Origin: a virus | Lineage: Duplodnaviria > Heunggongvirae > Uroviricota > Caudoviricetes | IMG/VR virus record: IMGVR_UViG_3300029702_000002 | Reading direction: 5' to 3' (one strand) | Length of the DNA stretch: 64,000 nt | Shown: piece after piece, positions 2,343 through 62,600 of the stretch | Layout of the letters: each line of letters opens with the position of its first letter | How positions within the stretch are numbered: the stretch's first letter is position 1 | Position numbers and translations under genes: made by a program | The notes under the pieces: generated by a model | Databases searched by the model: none | The model's input: the letters and a program-made list of their open reading frames with translations, nothing else | What the model was told of the DNA's origin: nothing

Positions 2343-3251
2343 ATGATTGGTAAGTTGTCTGATTCTTTGATTGAAAATAAATACAACGAATTTAGAGAAG
2401 AAATATCTTTACTTTTTGACTATTTAAATCAGATAAATGATACAACAAAGAAAAATATAAAACGTCTTCTTAAAGAAGTGGAGTATGCACAAAATCCAGA
2501 TACTATTATTAATATTAATGAAACTATTAAGATTAAGTGTGGCACAACGTTAGCTCGCCATTTATGTTCAAACCCATATACAGGTTCAACATTAGAGATA
2601 GGTAACAGCGCCATTGATTTAGAAGAAAAGATAAGATTGTGTAATACTTTGAAAAATAAACAATATCAGTGGGTTATTACTGAAGCCTATGAGTTACTGG
2701 AAGACTATATTGAGGCAATATATGTCTATACTGTATGTGTTCGAAATGATTTATGGTCCTCAAGTGATTTTGGTAAGGTTGAAGATGATGAAATTGGGAA
2801 AAGGGAAGTTTATTACAGATTATTAAAAGCAAAAAGTAACCCATCGAAAAAAATAACTAAAATTTTCAGAAATAAAATACCTGGCTTCAAAGAGATAGAA
2901 ACAAACAACAAGATTGGCAAAAACTATCGCTTTAACATCAAGCTAATTGAACTACTAAGACATACAATAGTACACAATAGTGGACGATTCAATGATACAG
3001 AAAAATTTATAAATAAGGTTTTAGATGAATCTGAAATAAACGGTAAGAAAAGAGTTATTGGAGAAAGAGCTGTTAGAAGTTACATTACTAAAGTGCAAGA
3101 AGATGATATTGTGATGCTCTTAGAAAGACCATCTGAAATTTTAGGTTCTTTTGGTGGGTATTTTAACAGAGCAAAATTTTTACTAAGTGATATTTTAGAA
3201 TACTCACTAATCATTAAAGAAGAACTAAAATCATATCTAGGCAATCATTAA
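2343..3251 (+). CDS. AT-rich hypothetical protein with HEPN-like Rx4H motif (LRHTIVHNSG); candidate abortive-infection protein
   Basis: 302-aa ORF with markedly lower GC than neighbours; R-x4-H motif in C-terminal half; own terminator. Confidence 0.5.
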   Translation: MIGKLSDSLIENKYNEFREEISLLFDYLNQINDTTKKNIKRLLKEVEYAQNPDTIININETIKIKCGTTLARHLCSNPYTGSTLEIGNSAIDLEEKIRLCNTLKNKQYQWVITEAYELLEDYIEAIYVYTVCVRNDLWSSSDFGKVEDDEIGKREVYYRLLKAKSNPSKKITKIFRNKIPGFKEIETNNKIGKNYRFNIKLIELLRHTIVHNSGRFNDTEKFINKVLDESEINGKKRVIGERAVRSYITKVQEDDIVMLLERPSEILGSFGGYFNRAKFLLSDILEYSLIIKEELKSYLGNH

Positions 3252-3252
3252 C

Positions 3253-3282
3253 AAAAAAGGGGCCGAAGCCCCTTTGGATTTT
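3253..3282 (+). terminator. Intrinsic terminator (AGGGGC-CGAA-GCCCCT followed by T-run)
   Basis: GC hairpin plus U-tract directly after stop of 2343-3251. Confidence 0.65.
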
Positions 3283-3429
3283 GCGCTTAAAAAAGTGTTG
3301 CTAGGATGTTAGCAAGCTATGGTTAAGAACGTCTGCCGTAATTGTCTATCACAGCGTTGAGCTGTCTGGTTTATGTTAGCGGAGTCTTAATCGAGTTGAT
3401 TAAAAGGCCAAACCGCTCAACGCTGTGTC

Positions 3430-3516
3430 TGGCGGAGAGTAATGGAATCGAACCATCATCGCTTGCGCAATGGGACGGTTTTCAAGACCGCTTGAGCACC
3501 ATGCTCCCTACTCTCC
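3430..3516 (-). tRNA. tRNA-Ser (anticodon UGA), long variable arm, CCA encoded
   Basis: Manual cloverleaf: acceptor GGAGAGT/ACTCTCC, anticodon loop CUUGAAA, T-loop TTCGATT, 3' GCCA. Confidence 0.85.
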
Positions 3517-3729
3517 AATTGTTGTGGTGCCGGGTGCTTCCCGGTGTCCTTTGGCTGGTTATCCACCGTGGACGGAGCCAATAGTCATCACAAAGGATCA
3601 ATATAACCATTTCCCCGCGTGCGCTTAGCCGCATTCACCACAACGAAAAGAGCACTGTATGACGTTTGCACGGACTTACGCTTCAAACAGGGCAGTCTCG
3701 GCGGTTCTCAATGCTCTTTCCTGTTGTGT

Positions 3730-3805
3730 TGGTGCCGGTTAACGGATTCGAACCGCTGACATCCTGCTTACAAGGCAGGTGCTCTACCAACTGAGCTAAA
3801 CCGGC
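3730..3805 (-). tRNA. tRNA-Thr (anticodon UGU), CCA encoded
   Basis: Acceptor GCCGGTT/AACCGGC, D-arm TAGCTCAGTTGGTAGAGC, anticodon loop CUUGUAA, T-loop TTCGAAT. Confidence 0.9.
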
Positions 3806-3807
3806 AT

Positions 3808-3882
3808 TGGCGATGGTGGGTGGATTCGAACCACCGACCAGTTGGTTAACAGCCAACTGCTCTACCGCTGAGCTACACCATC
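3808..3882 (-). tRNA. tRNA-Asn (anticodon GUU), CCA encoded
   Basis: Acceptor GATGGTG/CACCATC, anticodon stem GTTGG/CCAAC with loop CUGUUAA, T-loop TTCGAAT; 2 nt from tRNA-Thr. Confidence 0.85.
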
Positions 3883-4342
3883 AATTCGGCACTGCCAGTA
3901 TTTATTACTCAACAGTGCCAATCGCGACGGTTTAGTTTCTGCCAGGAAACGCACCGCTACTTGCACTTTTCGTTAGTGCCAGACGCTTTCGACTTCGCTC
4001 AATAGTAGAAGGCAAAATCTTTAAGTAGATGATGTTTCTGAGGACTGCACCTACTTTGTAATTTATACAATGTGATGTATGGAATCATTTGTTGTGAAAA
4101 CAGGCACCAATGGCAACAGTGGTTAAACCTACACAACTATCCTGTCTTCACAACGTTGAGGCCACTACTCCGATTGAATGTTTGCCCAACATGTTACATA
4201 TCAACGCTCGCCGGTATCTCTGTGAATAGAACCTTAGAATTGATAAAAATGTAATGGCCTCAACGTTGTGTGCTGGCTAACCATACCAGCCGGGCTACGT
4301 CGCCGCTTTTTAACCCAGTATAAACGACATAATTGAACAAAA

Positions 4343-4457
4343 TGACGTAACAGGATGGGCGGTCATTGGCTAAGAATCCGGGAGTCGTATATGAGTTGAA
4401 AATATACTGACCGCCCATCCTGTTACTTCATCGGAGGGAACATTCATGTTCCCTCCT
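4343..4457. ncRNA. Candidate structured RNA: 23-bp near-perfect inverted repeat (4343-4365 / 4408-4430, 42-nt loop) immediately followed by 10-bp GC hairpin (4434-4457)
   Basis: Arms TGACGTAACAGGATGGGCGGTCA and its complement read directly; no ORF support; next to tRNA cluster. Confidence 0.35.
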
Positions 4458-4661
4458 GCGTTCTGCAATCACACTCGCTCAGTGTGTCCCATTTCGGTAA
4501 CGAGGCTGGAAACTGACCTCGCTGGTGTTTGGCTTATTAGGCTACTGCCAGATAGACTTCTTCGTTTGCACTTGTATTTAAGTTCAAACAGTCGCGTCTC
4601 AACGAAAACAAAGTCATCTTATACATAAAAGATAAGTAAGTAAATACTTATCATTGTGTTT

Positions 4662-4952
4662 TTATTCGGTTGCGACTTTTTTGATCAAGGCCACTCTACG
4701 ACTAGGTGTTCTTGTGATGGTGGCAGTGAATCGTTTCGCTTGGATAGTAATGGTTTCGTTCTCCTTAAGTTGCCCGTAGCGAGTTTCCACCAGGGTGCCA
4801 AGACGCCACAGACCATCATCGATACGTTTATGACTAGCAAATTTAATCAGCAACAGTTTTACGACTAACTGACCTACGTAAAAGGCGAATGCGACTCCGG
4901 CCGCTAAGAAATAGGTGGCCAACCACCAGTCCCAAGAAGTTAAATTGCTCAT
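4662..4952 (-). CDS. Small membrane protein (96 aa, N-terminal hydrophobic segment)
   Basis: ORF start overlaps stop of upstream small ORF (ATGA). Confidence 0.5.
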   Translation of the reverse strand: MSNLTSWDWWLATYFLAAGVAFAFYVGQLVVKLLLIKFASHKRIDDGLWRLGTLVETRYGQLKENETITIQAKRFTATITRTPSRRVALIKKVATE

Positions 4953-5101
4953 TTTCTAACCTTTGTTTCATGAACTACCCGATACACACGCTTTCCGATG
5001 CACAGTGTTTTGGTTTTAAGTTCCTGCTTAATTAAATCACGACAGATGCCGAAGCCGATAAGGAAGCCACCCATAAAAGCTAATGAGATGTATGGAATCA
5101 T
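4949..5101 (-). CDS. Small hydrophobic protein (50 aa, MIPYISLAFMGGFLIGFGIC...)
   Basis: Below ORF-track size cut-off; ATG overlaps upstream stop (ATGA) and own stop overlaps downstream start; AGGAG site 8 nt upstream. Confidence 0.4.
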   Translation of the reverse strand: MIPYISLAFMGGFLIGFGICRDLIKQELKTKTLCIGKRVYRVVHETKVRK

Positions 5102-5313
5102 ATTAACACTCCTGATTCTACTAATTGCTGTAGCAATACTTTCCCTTTATCAGTTAACTGGTAGTTGGCCGAACACCACGTTTCAGAAACGTTTGCAACC
5201 AACCCTAAACGCTCTAACTTAGCTCGCGTTTTAGGCTTCCAGTACTCAGGGAACTCCGGCCACTTACTTATTTCATGAAGCGTTTCTTTCTCCCGTTTAC
5301 TTAATACGATCAT
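5098..5313 (-). CDS. Hypothetical protein (71 aa)
   Basis: Translationally coupled to ligase stop. Confidence 0.5.
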   Translation of the reverse strand: MIVLSKREKETLHEISKWPEFPEYWKPKTRAKLERLGLVANVSETWCSANYQLTDKGKVLLQQLVESGVLI

Positions 5314-6632
5314 TCTTTATCTCCGATTCGATCTTCGGTATCGCGTAAGCAACGCGGCCATTTCAGTCGTGGGTGGCGTAAGCTGCCGTCCGGTGTTTTC
5401 TCGTGACAATGAACCTCAACAATACGACCACGGTACTTCTCTTTGTTGTTCCAGATCTCGTCCAGATATTTATGCTTAATACCGCTCGCACGAACGATGA
5501 CGCCGTTTTCAAGACGAATAACAATTTTTCCAAGTGTGTTGGCAAAACCAGAGTCCGGGTCGCCCGGCTCAAAGTCGATAATTTCACCATCTTCTGAATC
5601 TTCGTCTTTTAACTTCCACCAGCTGCGGGTACGTTTAAACTCGTAAACAGAGTTCGGATCTTTGCCCATCTCCCCTTCTTCGTTATCGTCCAGGCGTTTC
5701 ATGAAGCGTTCGATGAAGTCTTCGTGGCTATGGATGATATAGAACGGATGCAGGTGAATGTCTTGTGTGTAGCCTTCACTGCGATCGTTTTTGAACAACG
5801 CCACCAGCATAGCCAGGCGCTCTTTCAGCTTCATACCTGTCTTTGCATACTCTTTGGATTTAGCCTGTGCTCGCCATTCCGGTAGGAAGAAGTCGAAAAC
5901 ATGATAAATAGCGCCAATTGCCTGCACGTTCTTTTTGCGCAATGCAGATACGGACTGGTTAAATGAACCGGCAGTTCCTTCACCATCGAAGAAGATGTGT
6001 TTGTGGCCTGAAAGTTTGCCTAATTCGAGCATGGCTGGCTTTAGGTGATCGAGAGACGTGATTGGATTACCAGTACGAGAAAGGAAGTTAACCTCTTCCT
6101 CGTCAACAATAACCTCGCAAATTACTCGCAAACCATCGAGCTTAAGACTGCCAATCATCGGCCATTTTGCTTTAGGATTTGGCTTGAAGGGGTATTTGTC
6201 GCCTTTTTCTTTATACGGTGACGCCAGCTGCACCTCGAATTTCGGAATGGGATTTTCAAAAACCTTGTTGCATAGGCTAATCCCAACGCCAGCTTTCGGG
6301 TCTTTTAAGAGGAAACGACGGAACACGTCCTGCCCATCGGCGCACATTGACGCCACGATAGACTCAACAGCTGCTATTGCTGCGTTCCCCGTTAGCTCGC
6401 GAGAGGCCAGCTTATTCAGTACATCAATGGCTTTTTCGTCACTTGGGATGGACTCACTAAGCGGCTCTGCCACTTTGTATTTCTTTACCCCAAAACGGAT
6501 GAAAGGGTTGAGCATCAATGAAACCATGCTTTGTTCAAAGTCATCCATGTTGGCCAATGCCTCTTTTTTTGCATTGGTTCCCATAGCTTTCATTTCGTCC
6601 AGCTTATGCTTAAGTGCGATCAACTTTTTCAT
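5310..6632 (-). CDS. ATP-dependent DNA ligase
   Basis: Adenylation motif I KLDGLR, FDGE motif and WWKLK motif V in 440-aa ORF. Confidence 0.8.
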   Translation of the reverse strand: MKKLIALKHKLDEMKAMGTNAKKEALANMDDFEQSMVSLMLNPFIRFGVKKYKVAEPLSESIPSDEKAIDVLNKLASRELTGNAAIAAVESIVASMCADGQDVFRRFLLKDPKAGVGISLCNKVFENPIPKFEVQLASPYKEKGDKYPFKPNPKAKWPMIGSLKLDGLRVICEVIVDEEEVNFLSRTGNPITSLDHLKPAMLELGKLSGHKHIFFDGEGTAGSFNQSVSALRKKNVQAIGAIYHVFDFFLPEWRAQAKSKEYAKTGMKLKERLAMLVALFKNDRSEGYTQDIHLHPFYIIHSHEDFIERFMKRLDDNEEGEMGKDPNSVYEFKRTRSWWKLKDEDSEDGEIIDFEPGDPDSGFANTLGKIVIRLENGVIVRASGIKHKYLDEIWNNKEKYRGRIVEVHCHEKTPDGSLRHPRLKWPRCLRDTEDRIGDKE

Positions 6633-7111
6633 TGTTGTTTTGCCTCCATATGTTGATCGATTTGCTCATGTGTTTTTTTTGTTGTTTCTTCAAGCAACGC
6701 CGCATACACGTCAGTGATCGCTGTTTGTGATGTGGCGCTCTTCTTAACCATGCTATTAATCGTTACACTGTCACGTTTTCGTTTTATAGTTCTGGCTTGT
6801 TTATTCCGTTCTTCAACCTCCTTAATGAGCGCGGTCATATCTTCGAAATACAGAGATTCTCCTTTACGAATCTCTTCAACCATCATTTTTAACGCCTTGC
6901 ATTTGCCTGCTTTGATAGCGGTTGCGCACGACTGGAATGAAGTTCGAGGAAGACGGTTTTCTTTGAAGGCAAGAATGGTGTGCTGGCAAACGGAGTAGCT
7001 GCAATATGCCGACTCACCGTTTATCTTTACTTCCTCACAACGAAGTGAATAACCATTATTTCCTGAAATAGAGGGGATTTTTGACAAATCAGCTTTCACA
7101 ACTACCGCCAT
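6629..7111 (-). CDS. Hypothetical protein (160 aa, Cys-rich N-terminus)
   Basis: ORF overlapping ligase start by 4 nt. Confidence 0.5.
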   Translation of the reverse strand: MAVVVKADLSKIPSISGNNGYSLRCEEVKINGESAYCSYSVCQHTILAFKENRLPRTSFQSCATAIKAGKCKALKMMVEEIRKGESLYFEDMTALIKEVEERNKQARTIKRKRDSVTINSMVKKSATSQTAITDVYAALLEETTKKTHEQIDQHMEAKQQ

Positions 7112-7166
7112 AAATAATCTTGTACTTACCTATCGTTATTTGCGTAAAAAACGACGCGCGGAGAGA

Positions 7167-7943
7167 TTACCAACTTCCCCAGCTAATCATCTTGCGCTGA
7201 TCGCTTTCTAAGCGATAAGGGGCAAGAAGCTCTGTGACATGATTGGTGGCGTATGATTTAGCCTCTTGCTTAATCATCGGTAATTCGTTAGCAATCCTGA
7301 CCATCTTCCCAGCAAATTCCGCCATTACGCCATCACAAGCCTTCCCCGCATCAACAACGATATGCACAAGATCCAACTGGCTTTTGCACATATCCCAAAG
7401 AGACGCGTATTCACTCTCTCTGATTACATTTACGGCACTATTAGCCCCTTTATTAATCAAAACTTCCAACAGATTTTTCGGGGTAACGAAATCTGCTTTC
7501 AGAGATAATGTCTTTTCACCACTTATCGAACGCAAGTACTCTTCGTAGTTATTCTTCATCAAACCGCTGCTGCGCATTGCTAGAACTGCTTCTTGAATGG
7601 CCGCTTCAATAGTTTCGTCGTTTGAAAGACAAAAAACGGTATTTGTGTAGATCACTCTGCCATCAAGCCATGCTCCAACCTGCACTTTAAGACTGAGCGG
7701 GTTTTCTTTGCTAATAAAAACAACTAATGCAGAACGCCGTGCACAAGAAGGTTCGCCCCATACGTGTAACTCAACTTTCAGATAAGGCAACCCTGGTAGC
7801 GGGATCTCGTCCATACGAGCAGCGATATGATTCATTGCTGTATTGACGGCCTTTCCAATGATGTCTAGTCGACTGCCCTCGCTGATTTCTAAACCTGTTT
7901 TATCAATGATGTCACAGGCCAATTTCTGAATTTCGTCTTTCAT
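7167..7943 (-). CDS. Hypothetical protein (258 aa)
   Basis: First gene of leftward operon 7943 to 4662. Confidence 0.55.
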   Translation of the reverse strand: MKDEIQKLACDIIDKTGLEISEGSRLDIIGKAVNTAMNHIAARMDEIPLPGLPYLKVELHVWGEPSCARRSALVVFISKENPLSLKVQVGAWLDGRVIYTNTVFCLSNDETIEAAIQEAVLAMRSSGLMKNNYEEYLRSISGEKTLSLKADFVTPKNLLEVLINKGANSAVNVIRESEYASLWDMCKSQLDLVHIVVDAGKACDGVMAEFAGKMVRIANELPMIKQEAKSYATNHVTELLAPYRLESDQRKMISWGSW

Positions 7944-13521: not shown

Positions 13522-14289
13522 ATGGACGATTTATCGGTATACGCGAGATCATTGGATAAGGCTAAATACTATGTTTACTGTCTCTATGATACAGAAGACA
13601 AGATGAAAAGACCGTTTTACATAGGAAAAGGCAAATCGACTCGTTGTCTCGATCACATCAAGTATCCCGATGACTCTCCCAAATCCATGCGGATCAAAGA
13701 ACTTTTGGCTAATAAAAAATTAGGCATAGATATACTTCGTCATGGTATGGATGAAACCACAGCCAAACTTGTTGAGGCGACATGCATCGACCTTATGGGG
13801 GTCGGAGAGCTTACGAATAAGGTACGAGGAAGTGGTTCCATGATGGGCAGAATATCACTGGACGCCTACCATCACTTAGTGCTGCAAGAGGAAACTGAAA
13901 TTGCTCCTGAGCACGCCGGTCTTGCCTTCCTGCTAAACAGCACCTACAAGTCAGGAATGTCCGCTCTGGCATTATATGAAGCTACGCGTGGCGTATGGGC
14001 AAAGGTTCCAAGAGACGAGAATCTCAAATATGCCTACGCTACATATGGTGGGCTGATAATGGAAGTTTATCAGATTGAATGCTGGGTCAAAGCCGGTTCT
14101 CAGCAGTACTTTACAAGGGATATAGCTCTTGGCCCCGACACAAAACGTTATGAATTTGTTGGCAGAATAGCCGATGAGCATATTAGAAAACTGTATGTAG
14201 GCAAATTAATCAAGAAGCCACCAAGCTACGGTAGCCCTTTTGTGAAGGTTGGGGTGGTTAGGACTGAACATAGTGTTAGCGCGGCATAA
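13522..14289 (+). CDS. GIY-YIG nuclease domain protein (free-standing, 255 aa)
   Basis: N-terminal YYVYCLYD...PFYIGKGKSTRCLDH matches GIY-YIG catalytic motif; lone plus-strand gene in minus-strand region. Confidence 0.7.
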   Translation: MDDLSVYARSLDKAKYYVYCLYDTEDKMKRPFYIGKGKSTRCLDHIKYPDDSPKSMRIKELLANKKLGIDILRHGMDETTAKLVEATCIDLMGVGELTNKVRGSGSMMGRISLDAYHHLVLQEETEIAPEHAGLAFLLNSTYKSGMSALALYEATRGVWAKVPRDENLKYAYATYGGLIMEVYQIECWVKAGSQQYFTRDIALGPDTKRYEFVGRIADEHIRKLYVGKLIKKPPSYGSPFVKVGVVRTEHSVSAA

Positions 14290-14341: not shown

Positions 14342-14701
14342 TTAACCTTTCTTCATCAACTCTCGTTTGATTTCATCGGTACGCATCGTGACATCGGCAG
14401 CGGTGATCGCCTCATTCAATTTCACGATGTCCTCGATTTCCTGCGGTGACTTCTCTGCCAGATGGAAAATGGCTGCTCGAATCACGTCAGAACGAGTGAA
14501 CTTCTCGAAGCGAGGGATGAACTTCATCATCTCCAGCAGTTCGAAGTATTCGTCCTCCAGTGACATTGTGCGGCTTTTAATTTTCTCTTTGCCACGAGTC
14601 GGGCGTCCCTGTGGTCTGACTGGTTGGCGCAAAGGAGTTGTGTTCTTAGCCGGTGCATCAGGCTCTTTGCGCTTTGCTAGGTCACCCATTTTCATGGACA
14701 T
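14342..14701 (-). CDS. ParG-like small partition protein (basic N-terminal tail, putative ribbon-helix-helix C-terminus)
   Basis: 119-aa ORF translationally coupled (ATGA) to ParA-like gene. Confidence 0.5.
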   Translation of the reverse strand: MSMKMGDLAKRKEPDAPAKNTTPLRQPVRPQGRPTRGKEKIKSRTMSLEDEYFELLEMMKFIPRFEKFTRSDVIRAAIFHLAEKSPQEIEDIVKLNEAITAADVTMRTDEIKRELMKKG

Positions 14702-15369
14702 TATTCTTCTTCCTCCAGACTCAACAGATAATCTACAAATTCTTCAAACTCGGCTTCCGCCTTTTTGTCGCGCTCGCTACCGGTCATTTCAAAGATAGAA
14801 CGACCAGACTCTTCCGCATCATCATAGACGTTGCGGTTATATAGATTGACTGGCGCAGACTCGATTCCAAACGTCTCAACAATCTCTTTAGCCGCCAGAA
14901 TGCGAGACACTTGTGATGGCAAAGCCGGGCACTGGTTCATGACCGCGCGGACCTTCACTTTATCGTTTACATTGCGAACATTGTCGATAATAGGATCGAT
15001 GTCACGTAAAGATTTCAAATCACGACGCTTAGGACGCAGCGGGATAATGATAACGTCAGCCATCAGCATCGCTTGTCGCTGAATTTCGGAGTCGAAGCCA
15101 CCAGCATCTACCACTACAAACTCAGCTCTACCCTGAAGCGATTTTAGGTGCTTAATGATGTCATCCTGAACGTATGCAAAAGGAATCAGCTCCAGGTCTT
15201 CGTTCTGTCGACGGTCTTCACACCAGCTCGTTGTCGTGCGCTGAATATCTATATCGGTAATATAAACCTTCTTCTTCTTTTTGACTTTCAGGCAAACGGC
15301 AATTTGCTGGGCAACGGTGGATTTGCCAGGCCCGCCCTTTGTGCCGCCAACCACAAAGATCTTGGTCAT
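14701..15369 (-). CDS. ParA/MinD-family partition ATPase
   Basis: Deviant Walker A KIFVVGGTKGGPGKST at N-terminus, 222 aa. Confidence 0.85.
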   Translation of the reverse strand: MTKIFVVGGTKGGPGKSTVAQQIAVCLKVKKKKKVYITDIDIQRTTTSWCEDRRQNEDLELIPFAYVQDDIIKHLKSLQGRAEFVVVDAGGFDSEIQRQAMLMADVIIIPLRPKRRDLKSLRDIDPIIDNVRNVNDKVKVRAVMNQCPALPSQVSRILAAKEIVETFGIESAPVNLYNRNVYDDAEESGRSIFEMTGSERDKKAEAEFEEFVDYLLSLEEEE

Positions 15370-15687
15370 TGGAGAGTTCCCTTTGCGTATATAATTATCG
15401 TCTGAAACAACTTGTTTTCTTATATGTGATATAGCCTAAATGCCTACGGCTGCGGTGTAAAGGTTAAATGGTAGGTTGTGATTAACAATTGGCAAACATA
15501 GCTTGTATTTGTCTGTTGAAAAAAGTAACAATGACCTCTATATTACAAGTACGGTGATATGCCGTACACAATTTGATAATGCACACGTAATGGGCTATAG
15601 CCTTTTAAAGTAATTTTTGAGTCGAAAACTCAGTTTGAACAGAGGAGATTGATGGCCTTCCTACATCACGGCCATCAGGAGGAATAC

Positions 15688-15957
15688 ATGTCAGCACTAA
15701 AAAAGCAGCGCATCGATTTGAGATTAACCGATGACGATAAAAGCATCATCGAGGAAGCTGCCGCAATGTCTAACCAGAGCATTACTCAGTTTATGGTTAG
15801 CAGTGCATCTGAACGTGCCGTGAAAGTTATAGAGCAACACCGTAGACTAGTTCTGAATGAAGAATCCTGGAATCTGGTTATGGACGCTATAAGCAATCCT
15901 CCGGCACCGAACGACAAGCTGAAACGAGCTGCTGATCGTCTGAAAAGCATGGAGTAG
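15688..15957 (+). CDS. DUF1778/TacA-like antitoxin
   Basis: Small ORF immediately upstream of GNAT toxin; ATG 15688 preceded by CAGGAGGAA. Confidence 0.7.
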   Translation: MSALKKQRIDLRLTDDDKSIIEEAAAMSNQSITQFMVSSASERAVKVIEQHRRLVLNEESWNLVMDAISNPPAPNDKLKRAADRLKSME

Positions 15958-15964
15958 TTTACTC

Positions 15965-16486
15965 GTGGATAATATAAAGATAGAAATTTTCTCTGGAGAG
16001 AAAGATTATGATTTGAATGGTTTTGATTGCGGTGAAGAATCACTAAATGCCTTTTTAACCAACCACTTAAAAAGGCAGCATGAGGGAAAAATTCTTCGCG
16101 CTTATGTGCTTTGCACGAAAGAAGGCAGACCAAAAGTGTTAGGGTATTACACTTTGTCAGGTAGCTGCTTTGAAAAGGAGTCCTTACCTTCAAGAAGCCA
16201 GCAAAAGAAGGTACCTTATCGGAATGTTCCAAGTGTTACTTTGGGTAGGCTGGCTTTGGACAAGTCCCTTCAAGGTCAAGGATTTGGCTCAATGCTTGTA
16301 ACACATGCAATGCGCGTTGTGTACAATGCATCTCTTGCTGTAGGCATTCATGGACTTTTCGTTGAGGCGTTAAATGACAAAGCCAAGGCGTTTTATAAAA
16401 GTTTAGACTTTATCCAGCTGGTTGGTAACAACGAGCGTTCTTTGTTCTATCCTACAAAATCTATCGAAAAATTGTTCGAAGAATAA
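15965..16486 (+). CDS. GNAT acetyltransferase toxin (TacT/AtaT-like)
   Basis: 173-aa GNAT fold with LQGQGFGSMLV acetyl-CoA motif, 8 nt after antitoxin stop; GTG start. Confidence 0.75.
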   Translation: MDNIKIEIFSGEKDYDLNGFDCGEESLNAFLTNHLKRQHEGKILRAYVLCTKEGRPKVLGYYTLSGSCFEKESLPSRSQQKKVPYRNVPSVTLGRLALDKSLQGQGFGSMLVTHAMRVVYNASLAVGIHGLFVEALNDKAKAFYKSLDFIQLVGNNERSLFYPTKSIEKLFEE

Positions 16487-16517
16487 TGTACTCCCCTCAA
16501 GTGAGGGGAACTTCGCA

Positions 16518-16733
16518 TCACCAACCGCAAACTCTCTCTCCCATCGTATTGTGAAAAAGGATTTGGCGTTCGGTTTCTTCGGTCATCACATCATTATTGC
16601 TGATATAGATAGGCCCAGCTCCATCGCAGAACAATACGCTGGCGGTTTGTGGTTTAATGACGCACCCACTTATCATACAACTCACGATGAACGGCAGAAG
16701 CATCTTTCTGACGTATTTTATTGCTCGTCTCAT
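16518..16733 (-). CDS. Outer-membrane spanin (Rz1-like lipoprotein), overlapping i-spanin
   Basis: Signal peptide with lipobox ISGC; ORF overlaps 3' end of 16654-16905 in another frame. Confidence 0.5.
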   Translation of the reverse strand: MRRAIKYVRKMLLPFIVSCMISGCVIKPQTASVLFCDGAGPIYISNNDVMTEETERQILFHNTMGERVCGW

Positions 16734-16905
16734 TCACCACTTCCACTGTGCTTTGAAGTCGTTTTCTGTCTTCCTGTTTTGCCTTCTCTTCCATTGCTCG
16801 TCGCGCCGCATTCCCGCCCATCGTGTAAGCGCCGACAAGAACGAAAAGAACGGCAGCCAGCGTAATCAAAGCAACTTTTAGCTTTGTCATCAGGCTGCCT
16901 AGCAT
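16654..16905 (-). CDS. Inner-membrane spanin (Rz-like)
   Basis: N-terminal transmembrane segment then charged coiled-coil-like region; directly downstream of endolysin. Confidence 0.5.
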   Translation of the reverse strand: MLGSLMTKLKVALITLAAVLFVLVGAYTMGGNAARRAMEEKAKQEDRKRLQSTVEVVNETSNKIRQKDASAVHRELYDKWVRH

Positions 16906-16906
16906 A

Positions 16907-17626
16907 TTAGACCATCCCTTTCTGGTATTTTCTTACCTGCGACCAGGCAATGAATCCTGCCACAACAATAGTGGCAATACCGAAGATGATGCGTACTGTA
17001 TCCCCGCTAGAGATATGACCTTGTGCTTTATCCATAGCAGCGGAAACCTGCGGCATAACATCGGCCAGCTGCGCCAGACCAATACCTGCTGTAACAGTTG
17101 CGCCTGCAGTTTCTTTAGTTACAGGAACAGCCTTCACGGTTTTCACCGGCTTAACAACGCCAGCTCGACGCAGACCTTCCTCAATAACTTCTGCCGCATA
17201 CCAGGTGTTCAGCGTTTTTAGCGGGCCTCGGCCATTCTCGTGGCGAATGATTGCCTCAACCAAAGGTCGAAGGATGTCGTAATCATGCAGATCGATGATC
17301 ATGTCTGCGGTTACACCAACGGCTTTAGACACCTCATTAATGTAGGCGTCAGTATTGTTTTCATTCGGCGGTGCCCAGCGTTCAATAACTTCACGAATGG
17401 TATCGATACTTGTGCCGTCTTTTGCGCGACGTTTATCGTGGTAGGTAATTAGAGTCACCGCCAGCGCACGAATCCCCCAAACAGGGTCTTTAAACGTGCA
17501 AAAGCGCGGTTCGTCTGGATTCGCAACCAGACCTTGCCACGGTGATCCTTTATCAAGATTACCGGGGTTATTATTACGAATGCCTCTCGGAGTCTTCATC
17601 CTTGATCTCCTGTTATTGCAGTCCAC
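16907..17626 (-). CDS. Putative endolysin/peptidoglycan hydrolase with C-terminal hydrophobic segment
   Basis: GIRNNNPGNL motif-containing domain, position between holin-like and spanin genes; C-terminal VRIIFGIATIVVAGFIAW hydrophobic stretch. Confidence 0.55.
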   Translation of the reverse strand: MDCNNRRSRMKTPRGIRNNNPGNLDKGSPWQGLVANPDEPRFCTFKDPVWGIRALAVTLITYHDKRRAKDGTSIDTIREVIERWAPPNENNTDAYINEVSKAVGVTADMIIDLHDYDILRPLVEAIIRHENGRGPLKTLNTWYAAEVIEEGLRRAGVVKPVKTVKAVPVTKETAGATVTAGIGLAQLADVMPQVSAAMDKAQGHISSGDTVRIIFGIATIVVAGFIAWSQVRKYQKGMV

Positions 17627-17948
17627 TTTTTACGCCATACGCGGCTAACCCCAAAAGCAGTGCGGTAATAATGAACGACGTTATTTTAGAAACAATGCCG
17701 CCAAAGAACCCACTTGAGATGGAATCTAACCGGTTAAGGAGTTTGTCCAGATTGGAGTGTTGAATACTATGTTGCGCCGGGGTCATATCACCAAAGTAGG
17801 TTTTCAGCTGATCATTGACCTCCTGGCCAATTTCTTCACGTAGCTCTTTACCTAATTTGCCAACAACCTCCCGAGCAACGATCGCGGCAATACGCTCAAC
17901 TTGCTCTGTTGTAACGCCCGCCATCTCGTTCGACATGTTTTCCTCCAT
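17613..17948 (-). CDS. Holin-like membrane protein (single C-terminal TM)
   Basis: Position upstream of endolysin; C-terminal ITSFIITALLLGLAAYGV segment. Confidence 0.4.
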   Translation of the reverse strand: MEENMSNEMAGVTTEQVERIAAIVAREVVGKLGKELREEIGQEVNDQLKTYFGDMTPAQHSIQHSNLDKLLNRLDSISSGFFGGIVSKITSFIITALLLGLAAYGVKSGLQ

Positions 17949-18138: not shown

Positions 18139-21100
18139 TCAGTTACTTGTTGCCCCAACAGTACCTGCAAATTTCAGCCATTGACCTGACGGACTTCTAT
18201 TACTACGGTAGTGATAAACGAGGATTGCGTTTGTAACTCCACCGTAGTCAGCTTTATGTGACGTTGTTAAACGAATTGTATAATCACCGTTAGGTAGATT
18301 AAAAACTTCGATTATAGATTCTGCTAATTCTACAGCACCAAATCCCGTTATATTGTTGATACTGCCAGCATTGAATCCCATAGCATCGCCAAAGCCAATC
18401 CAATAACTTTTGCTAAACGCCCCATTTGATTTTAGGTGGCTAATGAATGCGGACAAGCTCATGCCCATATCCCCACCTGAAACAGAGGAAGTTCGCACAG
18501 TCATGCTTGGAAGAGCACTGCTCTTCACATAGGAACTTAGAAGGTTTGTTACCTCTGTTTTCGTGTAAGCATTAAGGTTAGCCGCAGTCAAAGTTATATC
18601 GGCAGAGCCATCAAACGCCACACCAGCAATTTTCCTTGCTGTCTGCAATTTTGTGGCGGTTGCGGCATTACCAGTAGTGTTCTGATTACCAGTTGTATTC
18701 ACACCAGGGATTGAATCCTTAGCGGTATATACCTGCGCCCACGCTGACCATGCCGCACCTGTGTTATCTCTTCGTGAGCGAATGAAAACTGGCGCATGTG
18801 CACCGCTCGTACCACTCCAGCCAATAAGCAACTCTCCCTCACCAGCAGCACTCGCACCTTTCATGTGCAATACGTTGCCATACATGGTCGGGTAGCTATT
18901 GTTGTACGCCTCATACATTTGAATGCCAGCAGTGCCTTGAGTAGAGCCGCTTAACGCCGTAACTCGGCCACGAGATACCAATGTATTAATATTGATATCG
19001 CCTGAACCATCAAACTTAACACCATTGATGTTTCTCGCTGTTTGCAACTTCGTAGCTGTTGAAGCATTACCGTTCAAACTACCATTTACGCCACCAGTCA
19101 CATTTAGTCCATTACCAATTGATACAGCACCGCTGGTATTATTAATTGTAATAGGTCGCAAACCGTTCCATGAACCTAATGTGTCTCCTGATGCTGTTAG
19201 CATGAAATATGTGTTCGATCCATCATTACGGATAAAGAACCCAAAGCTACCGTAAGCAATGCGGAAACCATTTGCATATTTTGAAATGATCTCGCCAGAA
19301 GATGTCAAACCTCCAGATAATGTACCACCGGTAAGAGGTAATGCACCGACATCAGAGGCTGTTGGTTTGTTTTTCGTGTTATATACTCTTCGCCATCCTG
19401 GAGAATAATCTGTGCCATTAAATACATAGATAAACTCCGCATTAGTGAGAGCACCGGAAACACTTGTCGTTGTGGCCGTTGTTATGCGGATCGTATAATT
19501 ATTTGAACTACTACCGTTATTAAATACTTCTATAACAGCTCCTGCCAATGGAATAACGCCACAACCAGTTTCACTATTTGGTATGGTTGCGCTATTGGCA
19601 TAGGCCCACGCACATCGAGCAATCCATGCCTTTGTGTTAAAGGCTCCATTATTTTGCAATAACGTCACTAACTGGGCTGTTGTTATTGCTCCGCCATTAC
19701 TTCCTGTAGTTAACCAACCAGTAGGAGATGCTGGGCAACCTATATTTGCTGGTGACAAGGAAATATTTGCCGAACCGTCAAACGACACCCCATTAATAGT
19801 ACGCGCAGTCTGCAACTTCGTAGCAGTAGCCGCATTACCTGTTGTATTCTGATTACCAGTCGTATTAACACCTGGCAAATTAATATTTGCAGTACCATCA
19901 AAGCTCACGCCGCCGATAGTTCTTGCCGTCTGTAGTTTTGTAGCAGTTGCGGCATTACCAGTGGTGTTCTGATTACCCGTAGTGTTTACACCTGGAAGAT
20001 TAATATTGGCAGAACCGTCGAAACCAACTCCACCGATAGATCTTGCCGTCTGTAATTTCGTTGCTGTAGCAGCATTTCCTGAAAGACTTGAAATAAATGG
20101 ATGTGAACAGTAATAACCTCGTCCATTTTTAAAGTCCAAAATTATCTGTGCATTCGTACTTTCTGATAAAGGATCAGTTGCCCCCCACTTATAAGTGGTT
20201 TGACCAACTGCATAATCAGCCGTTGGAACAATCACATTTAATCCTTCCTCAGCAAAAATCTGGATAGGGAATGCTCTTGTCTCAACGTAAAATACACTAC
20301 ACAAATCATCATCTTTCACGCTTGCGATAATCGAGTGTATAGATCGTTCAACGGTTGAATATATTGAGAAAAAACCAACAGCATATGAACCGCGATCAGA
20401 CCAACCGCCCGGCATAACAAAACCATTAAACTCACAATTATTCATAGCGTATCCGCCAGCTGAGGAATAAGTGGTGATAACCACTCGTGAGGCTAATTCA
20501 TCTGTGCCACCACCAGTTCGGCGAAAGACTACAGGATACCACTTACCGCTTACTGCATTTGCAGGAGCAGAGAAAGTGTATTTTCGCATCCCCTTTTTCT
20601 TATCCACTTCACCTTTGCTGTAAACATTAATGTTATTCAGGAAGCGGCCCTTGTCGGGGATATCAGCACCATTCTGATCCTTCTGTAGTCTTTTTTCAGC
20701 ATTATCATATGCGGCCTTAACTGCTTTTGGCGTTGCGGCCAGCGATTCACTGGTGCTATCGACAGCACTGCTAAGTTTCACAACACCTTTAGTTGTAAGG
20801 CTTGCGTCTTCCATCGCAACTGCACCGGCAATCTCTTCAGCACGATCAGCAGCAGCTTCCGCACGGGTCGCAGCGGATTCAGCAGCAGTTTTGCTCTGAG
20901 ATGCTGCCGTCGCACTGCCTGCCGCCTCTGTTGCTTTCGTGGATGCTGTCGTGGCGCTGCCCTTCGCTGCGGACGCTTGTCTGGTCGCCTCATCTTTTGA
21001 AGCAGACGCCGATGATGCCGATGACGCTGCCGAACTGGCGGACGATGCGGCTGCCGTTTTTGAGGATTCTGCACGGGTTTCCGACGCTTTCGCGTTCGTT

Positions 21101-22176
21101 TCGGATGTCTTCGCTGCGGAAGCAGACCTCGCTGCTGCGCTGGCCTGTTCAGTGGCTTCGCCAGCCTTCGTTGTGGCTGTTGAAGCAGACGATGCGGCAC
21201 TTTCTGCCGATTTTCCGGCGGCGGTGGCACTGGCTGAGGCCTGCCCGGCACTTGTTGACGCGGCACTGGCAGACGACGCAGCCGCTGTTTTTGAGCCTGC
21301 CGCAGCCGAAGCGCTCTGTCCCGCTGCCGTTTCAGAAGACCTGGCGTTCGTCTCGGACGTTTTTGCCGCCTTCGCGGAATTTCCTGCCGCCGTTGCCGAG
21401 GAAGCGGCATTACTGGCGCTCGAGGCTGCGCTCGTTTCTGATGATTTCGCTGCCTCTTTTGAGGCCGCCGCATCCCGGGCTGAGGTGGCAGCTTCTGACG
21501 CTTTCGTGGTCGCGGTGGATGCAGAAGTGGCTGCTGATTGTTGTGACGCTGCGGCATTCGTTTCAGATTTTTTCGCAGCAGTTGCACTCGCACTTGCGGC
21601 ACTTTGTGAGGATGCCGCAGCGGATGCACTTTGAGACGCTTGAGAGGCTTTTTCTCCAGCGGTATTGGCGCTTTCTGCTGCTGCGGCAGCACTGGCCGCC
21701 GCCTCACGAGCTTTGTCGCCAGCAGCATCAATCGCGTCAGTGTTATTTTTATACCACTCAACGTTTTCGTTGTGCTCGTTGACGATCTGCATTAGCGGCT
21801 TAACGGTTACTTCTGTACCGTCTTCACGCTCGATTGTCACCTCATCCAGAGCAGTCAACCAACTGCGCATAGACTTGGAATCAGCCGACATACGCGACAT
21901 TAGTGCTGTAAAGCGCGCGCTAAACTGTGTTAAGTCGCCTTCATAGGTCGTAATGATTCGGCACGGAACCTCAGACTGAGTTTCGCCGGTATAAGGTTCT
22001 GAGAGAACAATATTCGTATCGCTTATTACGCGCTTGATCTCATACAGCTTATTGTCGGGGCCAATGACGATCATCCCCGGCAACACACCATTAGCTGTTA
22101 CGTTCCAGGCTGTCCCTGCCCCAACCAGAGTATTGCTACCCTGTGTAAATGTGATAGTACCTTCCCTGTACCACAT
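18139..22176 (-). CDS. Tail fibre protein (1345 aa)
   Basis: Long Ala/Ser-rich low-complexity region followed by at least 5 copies of NTTGNAATATKLQTAR..GV.FDGSA fibre repeat. Confidence 0.9.
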   Translation of the reverse strand: MWYREGTITFTQGSNTLVGAGTAWNVTANGVLPGMIVIGPDNKLYEIKRVISDTNIVLSEPYTGETQSEVPCRIITTYEGDLTQFSARFTALMSRMSADSKSMRSWLTALDEVTIEREDGTEVTVKPLMQIVNEHNENVEWYKNNTDAIDAAGDKAREAAASAAAAAESANTAGEKASQASQSASAAASSQSAASASATAAKKSETNAAASQQSAATSASTATTKASEAATSARDAAASKEAAKSSETSAASSASNAASSATAAGNSAKAAKTSETNARSSETAAGQSASAAAGSKTAAASSASAASTSAGQASASATAAGKSAESAASSASTATTKAGEATEQASAAARSASAAKTSETNAKASETRAESSKTAAASSASSAASSASSASASKDEATRQASAAKGSATTASTKATEAAGSATAASQSKTAAESAATRAEAAADRAEEIAGAVAMEDASLTTKGVVKLSSAVDSTSESLAATPKAVKAAYDNAEKRLQKDQNGADIPDKGRFLNNINVYSKGEVDKKKGMRKYTFSAPANAVSGKWYPVVFRRTGGGTDELASRVVITTYSSAGGYAMNNCEFNGFVMPGGWSDRGSYAVGFFSIYSTVERSIHSIIASVKDDDLCSVFYVETRAFPIQIFAEEGLNVIVPTADYAVGQTTYKWGATDPLSESTNAQIILDFKNGRGYYCSHPFISSLSGNAATATKLQTARSIGGVGFDGSANINLPGVNTTGNQNTTGNAATATKLQTARTIGGVSFDGTANINLPGVNTTGNQNTTGNAATATKLQTARTINGVSFDGSANISLSPANIGCPASPTGWLTTGSNGGAITTAQLVTLLQNNGAFNTKAWIARCAWAYANSATIPNSETGCGVIPLAGAVIEVFNNGSSSNNYTIRITTATTTSVSGALTNAEFIYVFNGTDYSPGWRRVYNTKNKPTASDVGALPLTGGTLSGGLTSSGEIISKYANGFRIAYGSFGFFIRNDGSNTYFMLTASGDTLGSWNGLRPITINNTSGAVSIGNGLNVTGGVNGSLNGNASTATKLQTARNINGVKFDGSGDININTLVSRGRVTALSGSTQGTAGIQMYEAYNNSYPTMYGNVLHMKGASAAGEGELLIGWSGTSGAHAPVFIRSRRDNTGAAWSAWAQVYTAKDSIPGVNTTGNQNTTGNAATATKLQTARKIAGVAFDGSADITLTAANLNAYTKTEVTNLLSSYVKSSALPSMTVRTSSVSGGDMGMSLSAFISHLKSNGAFSKSYWIGFGDAMGFNAGSINNITGFGAVELAESIIEVFNLPNGDYTIRLTTSHKADYGGVTNAILVYHYRSNRSPSGQWLKFAGTVGATSN

Positions 22177-59281: not shown

Positions 59282-61315
59282 TTACTTAACCTGGTGGCCT
59301 GGTTTAGCACCAGCATCCGGGCTTAACAGGAAGATATCTTTCCCGCCGGGGCCAGCAGCCATCACCATGCCTTCGGAGATACCGAAGCGCATTTTACGCG
59401 GAGCCAGGTTGGCCACCATAATGGTGTGACGACCAATCAGTGCCTGTGGATCTGGATAAGCGGAACGAATGCCGGAGAAGACATTACGTTTTTCGCCACC
59501 GAGATCCAGCGTCAGGCGAAGCAGTTTGTCAGAACCTTCGACAAACTCCGCGTTTTCAATCAGAGCCACGCGCAGGTCAACTTTGGCGAAGTCGTCAAAG
59601 GTGATGGTTTCCTGAATCGGATCATCTGCCAGTGGGCCAGTTACTGGCGCGGCAGCGGCTTTTACTTCCTCTTTGGATGCTTCCACCAGTGCTTCAACCT
59701 GCTTCATGTCGATGCGGTTATACAGTGCCTTGAACGGATTCACTTTATGGCCCAGCAGCGGTTGCTGGATACCATCCCAGGTCAGTTCTGTATTCAGGAA
59801 TGCTTCTGCACGTTCAGTCAGTTTCGGCAGTACCGGTTTCAGGTACGTCATCAGCACGCGGAACAGGTTAATGCCCATAGAGCAAATCGCCTGCAGATCG
59901 GCATCGCGCCCTTCCTGCTTCGCCACCACCCACGGAGCCTGTTCATCGACATAGCGGTTAGCCAGATCAGCCAGCGCCATGATTTCACGAATCGCTTTAC
60001 CAAATTCGCGGCTTTCCCATGCTTCACCAATCACTTCAGCAGCATCAGTAAAGGTTTTGTACAGTTGCGGGTCAGCCAGTTCGCTTGCCAGCACGCCGTC
60101 AAAACGCTTGTTGATAAAGCCTGCATTACGGGAGGCCAGGTTAACCACTTTGTTCACGATATCGGCATTCACGCGCTGAACGAAATCCTCCAGGTTGAGA
60201 TCGATATCATCAATGCGCGAAGAGAGTTTCGCAGTGTAGTAGTAACGCAGGCTGTCAGCGTCAAAATGATTCAGCCAGGTGCTGGCTTTAATAAAGGTGC
60301 CGCGAGACTTGGACATCTTCGCACCGTTCACCGTCACATAGCCATGAACAAACAGGTTGGTCGGCTTGCGGAAATTGCTGCCTTCCAGCATGGCAGGCCA
60401 GAACAGGCTGTGGAAGTAAACGATATCTTTACCGATGAAGTGGTACAGCTCGGCGGTGGAGTCTTTCTTCCAGTATTCGTCGAAGCTGGTAGTGTCGCCG
60501 CGTTTGTCGCACAGATTCTTGAAGGAACCCATGTAGCCAATCGGCGCGTCCAGCCAGACGTAGAAATATTTGCCCGGTGCGTTCGGAATTTCAAAACCGA
60601 AGTACGGCGCATCGCGGGAGATATCCCACTGTTGCAGGCCAGATTCAAACCACTCCTGCATTTTGTTTGCCACCTGCTCCTGCAACGCACCGCTGCGGGT
60701 CCATGCCTGCAACATTTCGCTGAAAGAAGGCAGATCAAAGAAGAAGTGTTCGGAATCACGCATTACCGGCGTAGCACCAGAAACTACCGATTTCGGCTCG
60801 ATCAGTTCAGTCGGGCTGTAAGTAGCGCCGCAGACTTCACAGTTATCGCCGTATTGATCCGGTGCTTTACATTTCGGGCAGGTGCCTTTCACAAAACGGT
60901 CCGGCAGGAACATGCCTTTTTCCGGATCGTACAGCTGAGAGATGGTGCGGTTTTTAATAAAACCGTTCTCTTTCAGGCGAGTATAGATAAGCTCGGACAA
61001 CTGACGGTTCTCTTCGCTGTGCGTCGAGTGATAGTTGTCATAGCTGATGTTAAAGCCTGCAAAATCAGTCTGGTGTTCCTGACTCATTTCGCCAATCATC
61101 TGTTCCGGTGTGATACCAAGCTGCTGTGCTTTCAGCATGATCGGTGTGCCGTGGGCATCGTCGGCACAGATGAAATTAACCTCGTGGCCGCGCATTCGCT
61201 GGTAACGAACCCAGACATCAGCCTGGATGTGCTCCAGCATATGGCCGAGGTGGATTGAGCCGTTAGCGTACGGCAGCGCGCACGTCACCAGAATTTTCTT
61301 CGCGACTTGGGTCAT
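59282..61315 (-). CDS. metG: Methionine--tRNA ligase
   Basis: Translation from [25 protein letters not shown] (HIGH motif), KMSKS motif, C-terminal ...AKPGHQVK; start placed at internal Met 44 of the 720-aa ORF to give the 677-aa enterobacterial MetG. Confidence 0.95.
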
Positions 61316-61472
61316 AGTAGGCATTACTTCTTTGTAGTGAAAAGGGGCTTGATAGTAACAAAATGGCCTTATGTCTGCCATGTGATAACAGCATTTCTCA
61401 TAAATGATTAAATGTCGTAGCTGGAGTACACTACAAGGCGACAATTGCGCAAATTAAAATAAAGGAGACGGG

Positions 61473-62573: not shown

Positions 62574-62575
62574 TA

Positions 62576-62600
62576 AAAAGGCGGTGCATTGCACCGCCTA
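62576..62600. terminator. Bidirectional terminator hairpin (AGGCGGTGCATTGCACCGCCT) between apbC and the UmuD'-like gene
   Basis: GC palindrome flanked by A-run and T/A-rich sequence. Confidence 0.55.

Follow-up and report, generated by a model that had tools for sequence, protein, structure and literature searches.

An AtaRT/KacAT-like toxin-antitoxin operon in a variable slot of an SSU5-like phage-plasmid as a candidate addiction module

Results

Two genes on the plus strand lie between partition genes and a lysis cassette in the window, by which we mean the whole 64,000-nucleotide stretch of viral DNA that was analysed (Table 1). The ORF listing and the sequence give first an ORF of 89 aa that opens with ATG and closes with TAG, and then one of 173 aa that opens with GTG and closes with TAA. 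Between them lie 7 nt (15958-15964), so that the second gene starts at the eighth base past the stop of the first, and the public record CP057798.1, which is identical here, gives both genes the same coordinates. All the genes around the pair are on the minus strand and the pair alone is on the plus strand, reading away from parA on one side and towards the lysis cassette on the other. An earlier note on this DNA had described such an arrangement, a small DUF1778 ORF followed by a 173-aa GNAT gene, transcribed opposite to its neighbours and towards the lysis genes, and the description was borne out. Finding these two genes together is far beyond chance.

Table 1. Features of the toxin-antitoxin locus and its neighbours (positions in the window)
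Feature	Position	Strand	Basis
parB-like gene, 119-aa ParA partner	14342-14701	-	
parA	14701-15369	-	Pfam MipZ/AAA_31/ParA; PHROG 'ParA-like partition protein', E 4e-51
Variable cargo slot relative to SSU5	15477-16535	none	blastn: homology up to 15476 and again from 16536
Predicted sigma-70-like promoter, TTGAAA, 17 nt, TATATT	15516-15544	+	10/12 consensus matches, the region's best
Putative operator palindrome, GTACGG-TGATATG-CCGTAC	15549-15567	none	begins 5 nt past the -10 hexamer
5' leader, ~120 nt from operator to start codon	15568-15687	+	
Predicted stem-loop, TGATGGCC-N12-GGCCATCA	15650-15677	+	3' arm abuts the Shine-Dalgarno sequence
Shine-Dalgarno sequence, AGGAGG	15677-15682	+	
Antitoxin gene, AtaR/KacA-like, DUF1778, N-terminal ribbon-helix-helix, 89 aa	15688-15957	+	homology
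Toxin gene, AtaT/KacT-like GNAT aminoacyl-tRNA N-acetyltransferase, 173 aa, GTG start	15965-16486	+	homology
G+C-rich hairpin between toxin gene and Rz1	16490-16511	none	9-bp stem; terminator-like score on the - strand
Rz1-like gene	16518-16733	-	PHROG Rz-like spanins; Cyrano and SSU5 annotation
Rz	16654-16905	-	PHROG Rz-like spanins; Cyrano and SSU5 annotation
Endolysin gene	16907-17626	-	PHROG endolysin; Cyrano and SSU5 annotation
Holin gene	17613-17948	-	lysis cassette member; Cyrano and SSU5 annotation

The 173-aa protein was compared with solved chains using phmmer. It matched AtaT (6gts_A, E 8e-79; 6AJM is AtaT too) and KacT (5zgn_C, E 3.7e-74), its residues 1-172 aligning to both free of gaps, while the remaining solved GNAT toxin chains, TacT-type included, gave E 2.5e-20 or weaker. 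Global identity to the chromosomal AtaT of E. coli O157:H7 is 68%. The 89-aa protein matches the Pfam family TacA1/DUF1778 from end to end (E 5.7e-26), and its best solved relatives are KacA (5zgn_A, E 6.6e-42) and AtaR (6ajm_C, E 1.3e-40); identity to the chromosomal O157:H7 AtaR is 75%. These matches support the family assignment proposed earlier, of a DUF1778 antitoxin beside a GNAT toxin of the tRNA-acetylating type. The accompanying label 'TacA/TacT-like' fits at the level of the superfamily but not at that of the clade. Among the solved chains the closest relatives of the toxin are not in the TacT/TacT2/TacT3 clade, as the AtaT/KacT group is far ahead, with AtaT at 8e-79 against 1e-18 to 1e-20 for Salmonella-type TacT chains. 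By sequence comparison the pair is placed in the AtaRT/KacAT clade of the GNAT/DUF1778 superfamily. This is 'clade A' of PMC9177977, whose members AtaT, KacT and AcaT have a single substrate profile of tRNAs charged with Gly and hydrophobic residues.

We then compared the toxin with AtaT at the 15 positions where mutation of AtaT alters its toxicity (PMC7595197). It has the AtaT residue at F30, H34, R37, S76, S78, K81, K82, Y85, R95, G108 in the acetyl-CoA site and the catalytic Y144, with conservative changes in R71K and K77R; only R40E and K79Q are non-conservative. Of the contacts to the tRNA acceptor stem (H34, R37, R40, R71, S76-K79, K81, K82, Y85 and R95), 8/12 are identical and 2/12 conservatively replaced. 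As R40E and K79Q lie on the tRNA-contact surface, substrate preference may be shifted from that of AtaT; K79 is retained in sister alleles. The acetyl-CoA loop, of the pattern Q-x-x-G-x-G and here Q103-G-Q-G-F-G108, and Y144 are invariant in six aligned homologues. With G108 and Y144 in place, the loss of conserved acetyl-CoA-binding residues that the earlier note named as grounds against a toxin is not seen.

The antitoxin keeps R8, D10 and R12 in a stretch (..KKQRIDLRL..) that is the same in KacA and AtaR; in KacA these residues read operator bases (PMC6698736). At the positions through which KacA neutralises its toxin, alignment showed M65 and I68 to be identical and Q70N and R77K to be conservative changes. 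Apart from these toxin-binding residues of the antitoxin, two of which are kept only conservatively, the sequence-level traits that define AtaRT/KacAT and that were examined are all present.

A longer antitoxin starting at ATG 15652 or TTG 15649, which the annotation of phage Cyrano gives as a 101-aa protein, was considered and rejected, the frame being broken by a 1-nt insertion between 15652 and 15688 in three sister alleles (L023, L025 and L031). We take 15688 as the start because AtaR and KacA begin there and because of that break in the upstream frame. The GTG start of the toxin gene and the short spacer are typical of the clade: GTG is the start codon in 27/38 clade-A toxins, and the spacer ranges from 2 to 11 nt among homologues.

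The GNAT might instead be a harmless acetyltransferase acting on some other substrate, a small molecule or a protein, with the upstream gene encoding only a transcription factor. The generic Pfam and NCBIfam matches of the protein are indeed weak and RimI-type-like (it is above the gathering scores of Acetyltransf_1 and Acetyltransf_7, weakly), and AtaT itself is reported to acetylate the protein EspB (PMC7957018). We regard this as extremely unlikely, given 68% full-length identity to a toxin of solved structure and proven activity, the retention of all the catalytic and cofactor residues and most of the tRNA contacts, and the presence beside the gene of a cognate-type antitoxin and an operator.

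Upstream of the antitoxin gene, the promoter that we predict to serve the pair is conserved in all related alleles. The half-sites of the palindrome that follows it equal those of the crystallised KacAT operator, TGTACGG-TTATTAA-CCGTACA, for which the duplex in the KacAT-DNA crystal was AAATGTACGGTTATTAACCGTACATGA (PMC6698736), and the same half-sites stand upstream of chromosomal ataR, in GTACGGTGACATACCGTAC. With one mismatch allowed the motif occurs a single time in the 64 kb, where 0.05 occurrences are expected. It also lies upstream of the antitoxin gene in 50/53 clade-A genomic homologues from Enterobacterales and in all the viral homologues but one (L034), at distances to the start codon ranging from -33 to -172 among homologues. 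We infer that an antitoxin-toxin hexamer represses the operon at 15549-15567 with conditional cooperativity, as in KacAT.

The leader that runs from the operator to the start codon has a length of about 120 nt, against about 27 nt for chromosomal ataR. An Rfam search of the leader returned no known RNA family; one miRNA match, at E 0.34, was set aside as a chance Rfam match. As a whole the leader folds no better than its shuffles (z -0.36). The one part that stands out is the local stem-loop at its downstream end, beside the Shine-Dalgarno sequence, and the arms are conserved in all the phage-plasmid alleles. Where they do change, pairing is preserved, from G-C to U-G in L053, in L032 and L033, and from U-A to C-G in L039. 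A covariance model of the stem-loop recovered just L053, L033 and L032, all of them related in sequence, so formal support from covariation is thin; it amounts to two both-sided changes and one mismatch.

More distant homologues with long leaders have hairpins of unrelated sequence at the same position. Counting the cases in which the 36 nt before the Shine-Dalgarno sequence had z < -1 and a 3' arm ending within 3 nt of it gave 14/21 long leaders against 4/48 control genes of the window, in a comparison where the 21 leaders are not independent of one another, the shuffles kept mononucleotide content only, and control segments were positioned from the start codon and leader segments from the Shine-Dalgarno sequence. 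The recurrence of a hairpin at this site is suggestive, and we treat it as an unexplained regularity and not as a finding. A stem-loop so placed could tune the ratio of antitoxin to toxin.

The DNA that carries the pair was identified by comparison with public records. The stretches of the window that were searched, 1-25000 and 39001-64000, are 100% identical to and collinear with CP057798.1 17901-81900. This record is pRHB14-C22_3, a circular, non-mobilizable element of 108,954 bp from a pig-farm E. coli, with tail, capsid, portal, terminase and lysis genes and parAB. Identity of the region to the Escherichia phages Cyrano and CMS-2020a is 97-99.6%. SSU5/pHCM2-like phage-plasmids are circular, non-mobilizable replicons of roughly 100-120 kb that combine phage structural and lysis genes with plasmid partition genes and are collinear with SSU5. 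Judged by these traits and matches, the carrier is an extrachromosomal SSU5/pHCM2-like phage-plasmid of E. coli, not an integrated prophage.

Compared with SSU5, the pair occupies a slot flanked by homologous DNA, 86% identical before it and 81% after it by blastn. One boundary of the slot sits inside the last codons of Rz1. In SSU5 the slot holds two unrelated genes on the minus strand, in PhiR41_1 two other genes and not the pair, and in pJN2-26 a single gene on the plus strand; the slot genes of these three relatives gave no Pfam or PADLOC match. G+C is 41% in the slot against 48% in the flanks. Since relatives hold unrelated genes here and the G+C content of the slot is lower, we consider the pair to be cargo. 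The earlier description of the pair as prophage cargo is therefore right as to the cargo, SSU5, PhiR41_1 and pJN2-26 all carrying unrelated genes in a slot of low G+C, but not as to an integrated prophage, the carrier being an extrachromosomal phage-plasmid.

The toxin gene ends 31 nt from the Rz1 stop codon and a single hairpin, which falls within the cargo segment in the SSU5 comparison, is common to both genes and is likely a transcription stop. This closeness, together with a slot boundary within the Rz1 coding sequence, might suggest that the pair modulates the lytic programme of the phage, either by convergent transcription that damps leaky Rz/Rz1-endolysin expression or by a toxin-induced arrest that times lysis. 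We find this very improbable: slot genes of either orientation occur in relatives, so convergence is no conserved requirement, transcription of one unit is probably kept out of the other by the hairpin, and the idea is without precedent.

Two links between the toxin and other genes of the phage-plasmid were considered and dropped. A tie to its metG is not supported, since PhiR41_1 has metG without the pair. A tie to its tRNA genes (Ser, Thr and Asn) is not supported either: of the three, AtaT was seen to act in vivo on the Asn tRNA only, which was not one of its efficient substrates.

The surroundings of the pair look like a defence hotspot, given that a counter-oriented cargo gene 1.4 kb upstream (13522-14289) matches the defence protein PD-T4-3 of PADLOC-DB v2 with E 1.3e-23. 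Accessory slots of prophages frequently carry defence genes. The same molecular machine could then serve in abortive infection or superinfection exclusion, a competing phage shutting down host transcription or triggering loss of the antitoxin, and the resulting arrest of translation protecting the lysogen population. Occupation of a variable slot close to the PD-T4-3-like gene is in keeping with this, and tRNA-targeting toxins are common as defence effectors (PMC12409363). Neither protein of the pair, however, matches a PADLOC-DB v2 model at E 0.01, the literature searched gave no GNAT/DUF1778 pair that defends against phage, and such pairs are also frequent on chromosomes outside obvious defence islands, as with ataRT between livJ and panM. 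We consider a defence role unlikely, though it is the main rival to addiction.

The full segment was found in 143 PLSDB plasmids, mostly from Escherichia, and in 152/5,426 complete E. coli genomes. Chromosomal ataRT, with about 65% DNA identity to the pair, occupies 1,626 chromosomal places, in about 30% of complete E. coli genomes. Using metG as a marker of the phage-plasmid backbone gave 219 plasmids against 152 genomes with the pair, so the pair may be missing from roughly a third of the related phage-plasmids of E. coli. Among IMG/VR loci whose toxin is 92% identical or more, 28/30 had the context parAB-pair-Rz-endolysin. In L033, a different phage-plasmid-like contig, a pair of 72% identity likewise lies beside a ParA gene; a P1-type methyltransferase and further partition proteins are encoded on the same contig.

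Both ORFs are intact in 28/28 SSU5-like viral contigs. Between allele groups dN/dS is 0.04-0.16 across both genes (0.05-0.16 for the toxin), with dS up to 0.59; the value was 0.41 for a single allele that is nearly identical, with 5 differences only. Intact copies and low dN/dS therefore indicate that both genes are maintained as functional. One allele group has an antitoxin gene that is 100% identical and a toxin gene with 25 substitutions clustered in its 5' half, and such mosaic alleles suggest recombination within the operon.

Such mosaics are also what one might see if the pair were a selfish or neutral passenger, hard to lose and spread by recombination without benefit to the phage-plasmid, or if it were mainly a host stress or persistence module of the kind proposed for TacT and KacT. 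The lack of the pair in PhiR41_1, and perhaps in about a third of related phage-plasmids (152 vs 219), points the same way. Strong purifying selection on both genes, the 28/28 intact copies and the recurrence of a partition-gene neighbourhood in two phage-plasmid lineages all speak against it, and we think this reading improbable.

Discussion

The locus is best explained as an operon of the AtaR-AtaT/KacA-KacT clade of type II toxin-antitoxin systems, held in a swappable slot between parAB and the lysis cassette and serving as an addiction module of the phage-plasmid; we put the probability of this reading at roughly 0.6. Its parts differ in strength. By analogy with the characterised members of the clade, the molecular mechanism is very likely to be N-acetylation of aminoacyl-tRNA that arrests translation, with the antitoxin neutralising the toxin directly and the operon repressing itself at the palindrome. 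The role as an addiction module in plasmid-prophage maintenance is argued from position and precedent, and is somewhat better than an even bet.

[quoted passage not shown] Its expected targets are Gly-tRNA and tRNAs with hydrophobic or aromatic residues, the initiator Met-tRNA included. Once acetylated these tRNAs would be barred from translation, and growth would stop. The C-terminal half of the antitoxin would wrap around the toxin and block both its acetyl-CoA site and its dimerisation, while the N-terminal ribbon-helix-helix would read GTACGG-N7-CCGTAC, which is predicted to overlap the transcription start. As the palindrome is read over the transcription start, a T-A2-A2-T hexamer would therefore repress the operon, and an excess of toxin would lift repression. 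Toxin synthesis would be held below that of the antitoxin by the weakness of GTG as a start codon and by the spacer of 7 nt.

The carrier being a phage-plasmid, the most likely role shifts to maintenance of the plasmid prophage. If the low-copy plasmid prophage were lost from a cell, the labile antitoxin would be lost with it and the cell would be arrested by post-segregational killing. Addiction of this kind would complement the adjacent parAB. We favour it because of the plasmid lifestyle of the carrier, the partition genes beside the pair in two phage-plasmid lineages, the precedent of GmvAT and the recognised place of toxin-antitoxin systems among the shell genes of the SSU5 supercommunity (PMC7969092). 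The literature searched held no experiment on this allele and no GNAT toxin-antitoxin system of SSU5-like elements.

The host may complicate this picture. Chromosomal ataRT encodes an antitoxin of 75% identity, which might weaken any addiction by neutralising the toxin. A broader proposal joins this to the leader: phage-plasmid AtaRT operons would have an additional post-transcriptional control in the stem-loop at the antitoxin Shine-Dalgarno sequence, and the module would be a device for both addiction and superinfection defence that interacts with chromosomal ataRT through cross-neutralisation or anti-addiction. Taken as a whole, we hold this proposal to be improbable.

The pair is already known and publicly annotated, and is best described as an uncharacterised orthologue in a known family. 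PGAP labels the two products 'DUF1778 domain-containing protein' and 'GNAT family N-acetyltransferase', with 'TacA family antitoxin' in some records; phage Cyrano has 'KacT acetyltransferase-type toxin' and 'putative antitoxin', and both proteins belong to existing PHROG families. As the family, its chemistry, structures and operator are all established, the pair adds context and no new principle. Phage-plasmids of the SSU5/pHCM2 type are often met in E. coli, Klebsiella and Salmonella, some of them with ESBL genes, and knowledge of their maintenance and defence cargo helps to explain their persistence. A toxin of the AtaT type is a plausible stabiliser of such a phage-plasmid, and could interact with the chromosomal ataRT present in about 30% of E. 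coli genomes.

Among the closest known systems is AtaR-AtaT of E. coli O157:H7 (PDB 6AJM, 6GTS and others). It has the same gene order, with proteins of 88 and 175 aa compared with 89 and 173 aa here, and identities of 75% and 68% without internal gaps. Tyr144, Gly108, the DNA-reading residues of the ribbon-helix-helix and the GTACGG-N7-CCGTAC operator are all the same. The two systems differ in that AtaRT is chromosomal, between livJ and panM, and the pair described here is borne by a phage-plasmid. AtaT starts with ATG and our toxin with GTG, DNA identity is only about 65%, R40E and K79Q alter the tRNA-contact surface, and the leader is about 27 nt in AtaRT but about 120 nt here, with a stem-loop abutting the Shine-Dalgarno sequence.

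KacA-KacT of Klebsiella pneumoniae (PDB 5ZGN and 5XUN) is another close relative, KacA being the best match of the antitoxin (E 6.6e-42). The half-sites are those of the KacAT-DNA crystal, and the T-A2-A2-T hexamer and conditional cooperativity of that system are expected here. KacAT is a chromosomal locus of Klebsiella, whereas the present pair is on a phage-plasmid. Q70 and R77 of KacA are N70 and K77 here, both conservative changes, and the catalytic Tyr of KacT is Y145, compared with Y144 in AtaT and in the toxin described here.

TacA-TacT of Salmonella, with TacAT2 and TacAT3, shares the superfamily, the architecture and the chemistry of aminoacyl-tRNA acetylation, but is far more distant. 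The residues with which AtaT contacts the acceptor stem are not conserved outside the AtaT/KacT clade (PMC7595197).

GmvA-GmvT of the Shigella virulence plasmid pINV, whose gmvT is listed as a GNAT toxin (PMC9177977), is reported to be a GNAT toxin system that aids vertical transmission of a large low-copy plasmid (PMC6519299). It is the best functional precedent for addiction, though pINV is not a phage-plasmid.

The phd-doc genes of P1 are a classic addiction module. Like the pair described here they form a type II toxin-antitoxin system on a phage-plasmid, where they count as a persistent gene of plasmid type (PMC7969092). Their protein families and toxin chemistry are unrelated to those of the AtaRT/KacAT-like pair.

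Mosaic toxin alleles and the leader

The antitoxin gene is 100% identical between the window and the viral homologue loci L011-L022, and the leader is identical or nearly identical. Divergence lies in the toxin gene, whose 5' half (15965-16213) carries 25 substitutions relative to these loci, 9.5 of them non-synonymous, with the amino acid changes at residues 2-5, 32, 52-54 and 79. This mosaic pattern in the sequences suggests recombination within the toxin-antitoxin (TA) operon.

The leader ends in a stem-loop that directly adjoins the Shine-Dalgarno sequence of the antitoxin gene. Hairpins occur at the equivalent position in 14 of 21 AtaRT/KacAT-clade operons with long leaders, which are not independent of one another, as against 4 of 48 control genes in the window. 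The sequences of these position-matched hairpins are unrelated to one another, and no Rfam match to the leader was found.

A different, phage-plasmid-like viral contig, L033, carries a related AtaRT-type pair. Its leader is 172 nt long, its GTACGG/CCGTAC operator is present in two copies and, as in the window, a ParA gene adjoins the pair.

Cargo slots around parAB

SSU5, PhiR41_1 and pJN2-26 lack the TA pair, and their parA-Rz1 slot is filled by other one- or two-gene cassettes. The genes of these cassettes had no match in Pfam or PADLOC; they are candidates for maintenance or defence functions. On the other side of parAB lies a GIY-YIG protein gene, oriented, like the TA pair, against its neighbours. 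Its product matches the PADLOC model for PD-T4-3, catalogued there as a one-gene anti-phage defence, over nearly its full length (E 1.3e-23). PhiR41_1 keeps the same gene in the corresponding slot, and pLAO7, Cyrano and SSU5 have different genes there. As the content of this slot also differs among relatives, two variable cargo slots flank parAB.

The gene downstream of parA is annotated in Cyrano as a 'RelE/ParE putative toxin'. A Pfam search with the window protein gave no match, and the product is more likely the ParA partner, a centromere-binding protein, than a RelE/ParE toxin.

The tail fibre gene model looks uncertain. The N-terminal part of the mechanical ORF is long, repetitive and Ala/Ser-rich, and the public record confines the tail fibre to 18139-20814, with a hypothetical plus-strand gene at 20951-21634.

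Coordinates of the leader, cargo and accessory features
Feature	Sequence	Position	Strand	Remark
Long leader of TA pair	window	15568-15687	+	stem-loop 15650-15677 (+)
Gene downstream of parA	window	14342-14701	-	119 aa
GIY-YIG protein gene	window	13522-14289	+	255 aa; PADLOC PD-T4-3; Pfam LEM-3_GIY-YIG
Tail fibre, mechanical ORF	window	18139-22176	-	1,345 aa
tRNA-Ser(UGA)	window	3430-3516	-	
tRNA-Thr(UGU)	window	3730-3805	-	
tRNA-Asn(GUU)	window	3808-3882	-	
metG	window	59295-61328	-	methionyl-tRNA synthetase, 677 aa, full-length
apbC	window	61486-62586	+	adjoins metG
SSU5_032/031	L002 (SSU5)	6122-7278		two genes; parA-Rz1 slot
Slot cassette	L035 (PhiR41_1)	2618-3793		two genes; parA-Rz1 slot
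Slot cassette	L036 (pJN2-26)	4287-4844		one gene; parA-Rz1 slot
AtaRT-type pair	L033 (IMGVR_UViG_3300025735_000294)	4728-6461		locus of the pair; 72% identical

tRNA genes and metG

Of the three tRNA genes, only Thr(UGU) and Asn(GUU) are reported at the Rfam gathering threshold.

Acetylation of Met-tRNAfMet was the first activity described for the AtaT-type toxin family, and the metG of the phage-plasmid is a curious companion to such a toxin. However, PhiR41_1 has metG and lacks the TA pair, which counts against a link between the two. The gene is also found in Cyrano and CMS-2020a, and at 219 places on plasmids in a search of 5,426 complete E. coli genomes. It has about 94.5% nucleotide identity to chromosomal E. 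coli metG, and its position beside apbC is an arrangement that the phage-plasmid shares with the E. coli chromosome.
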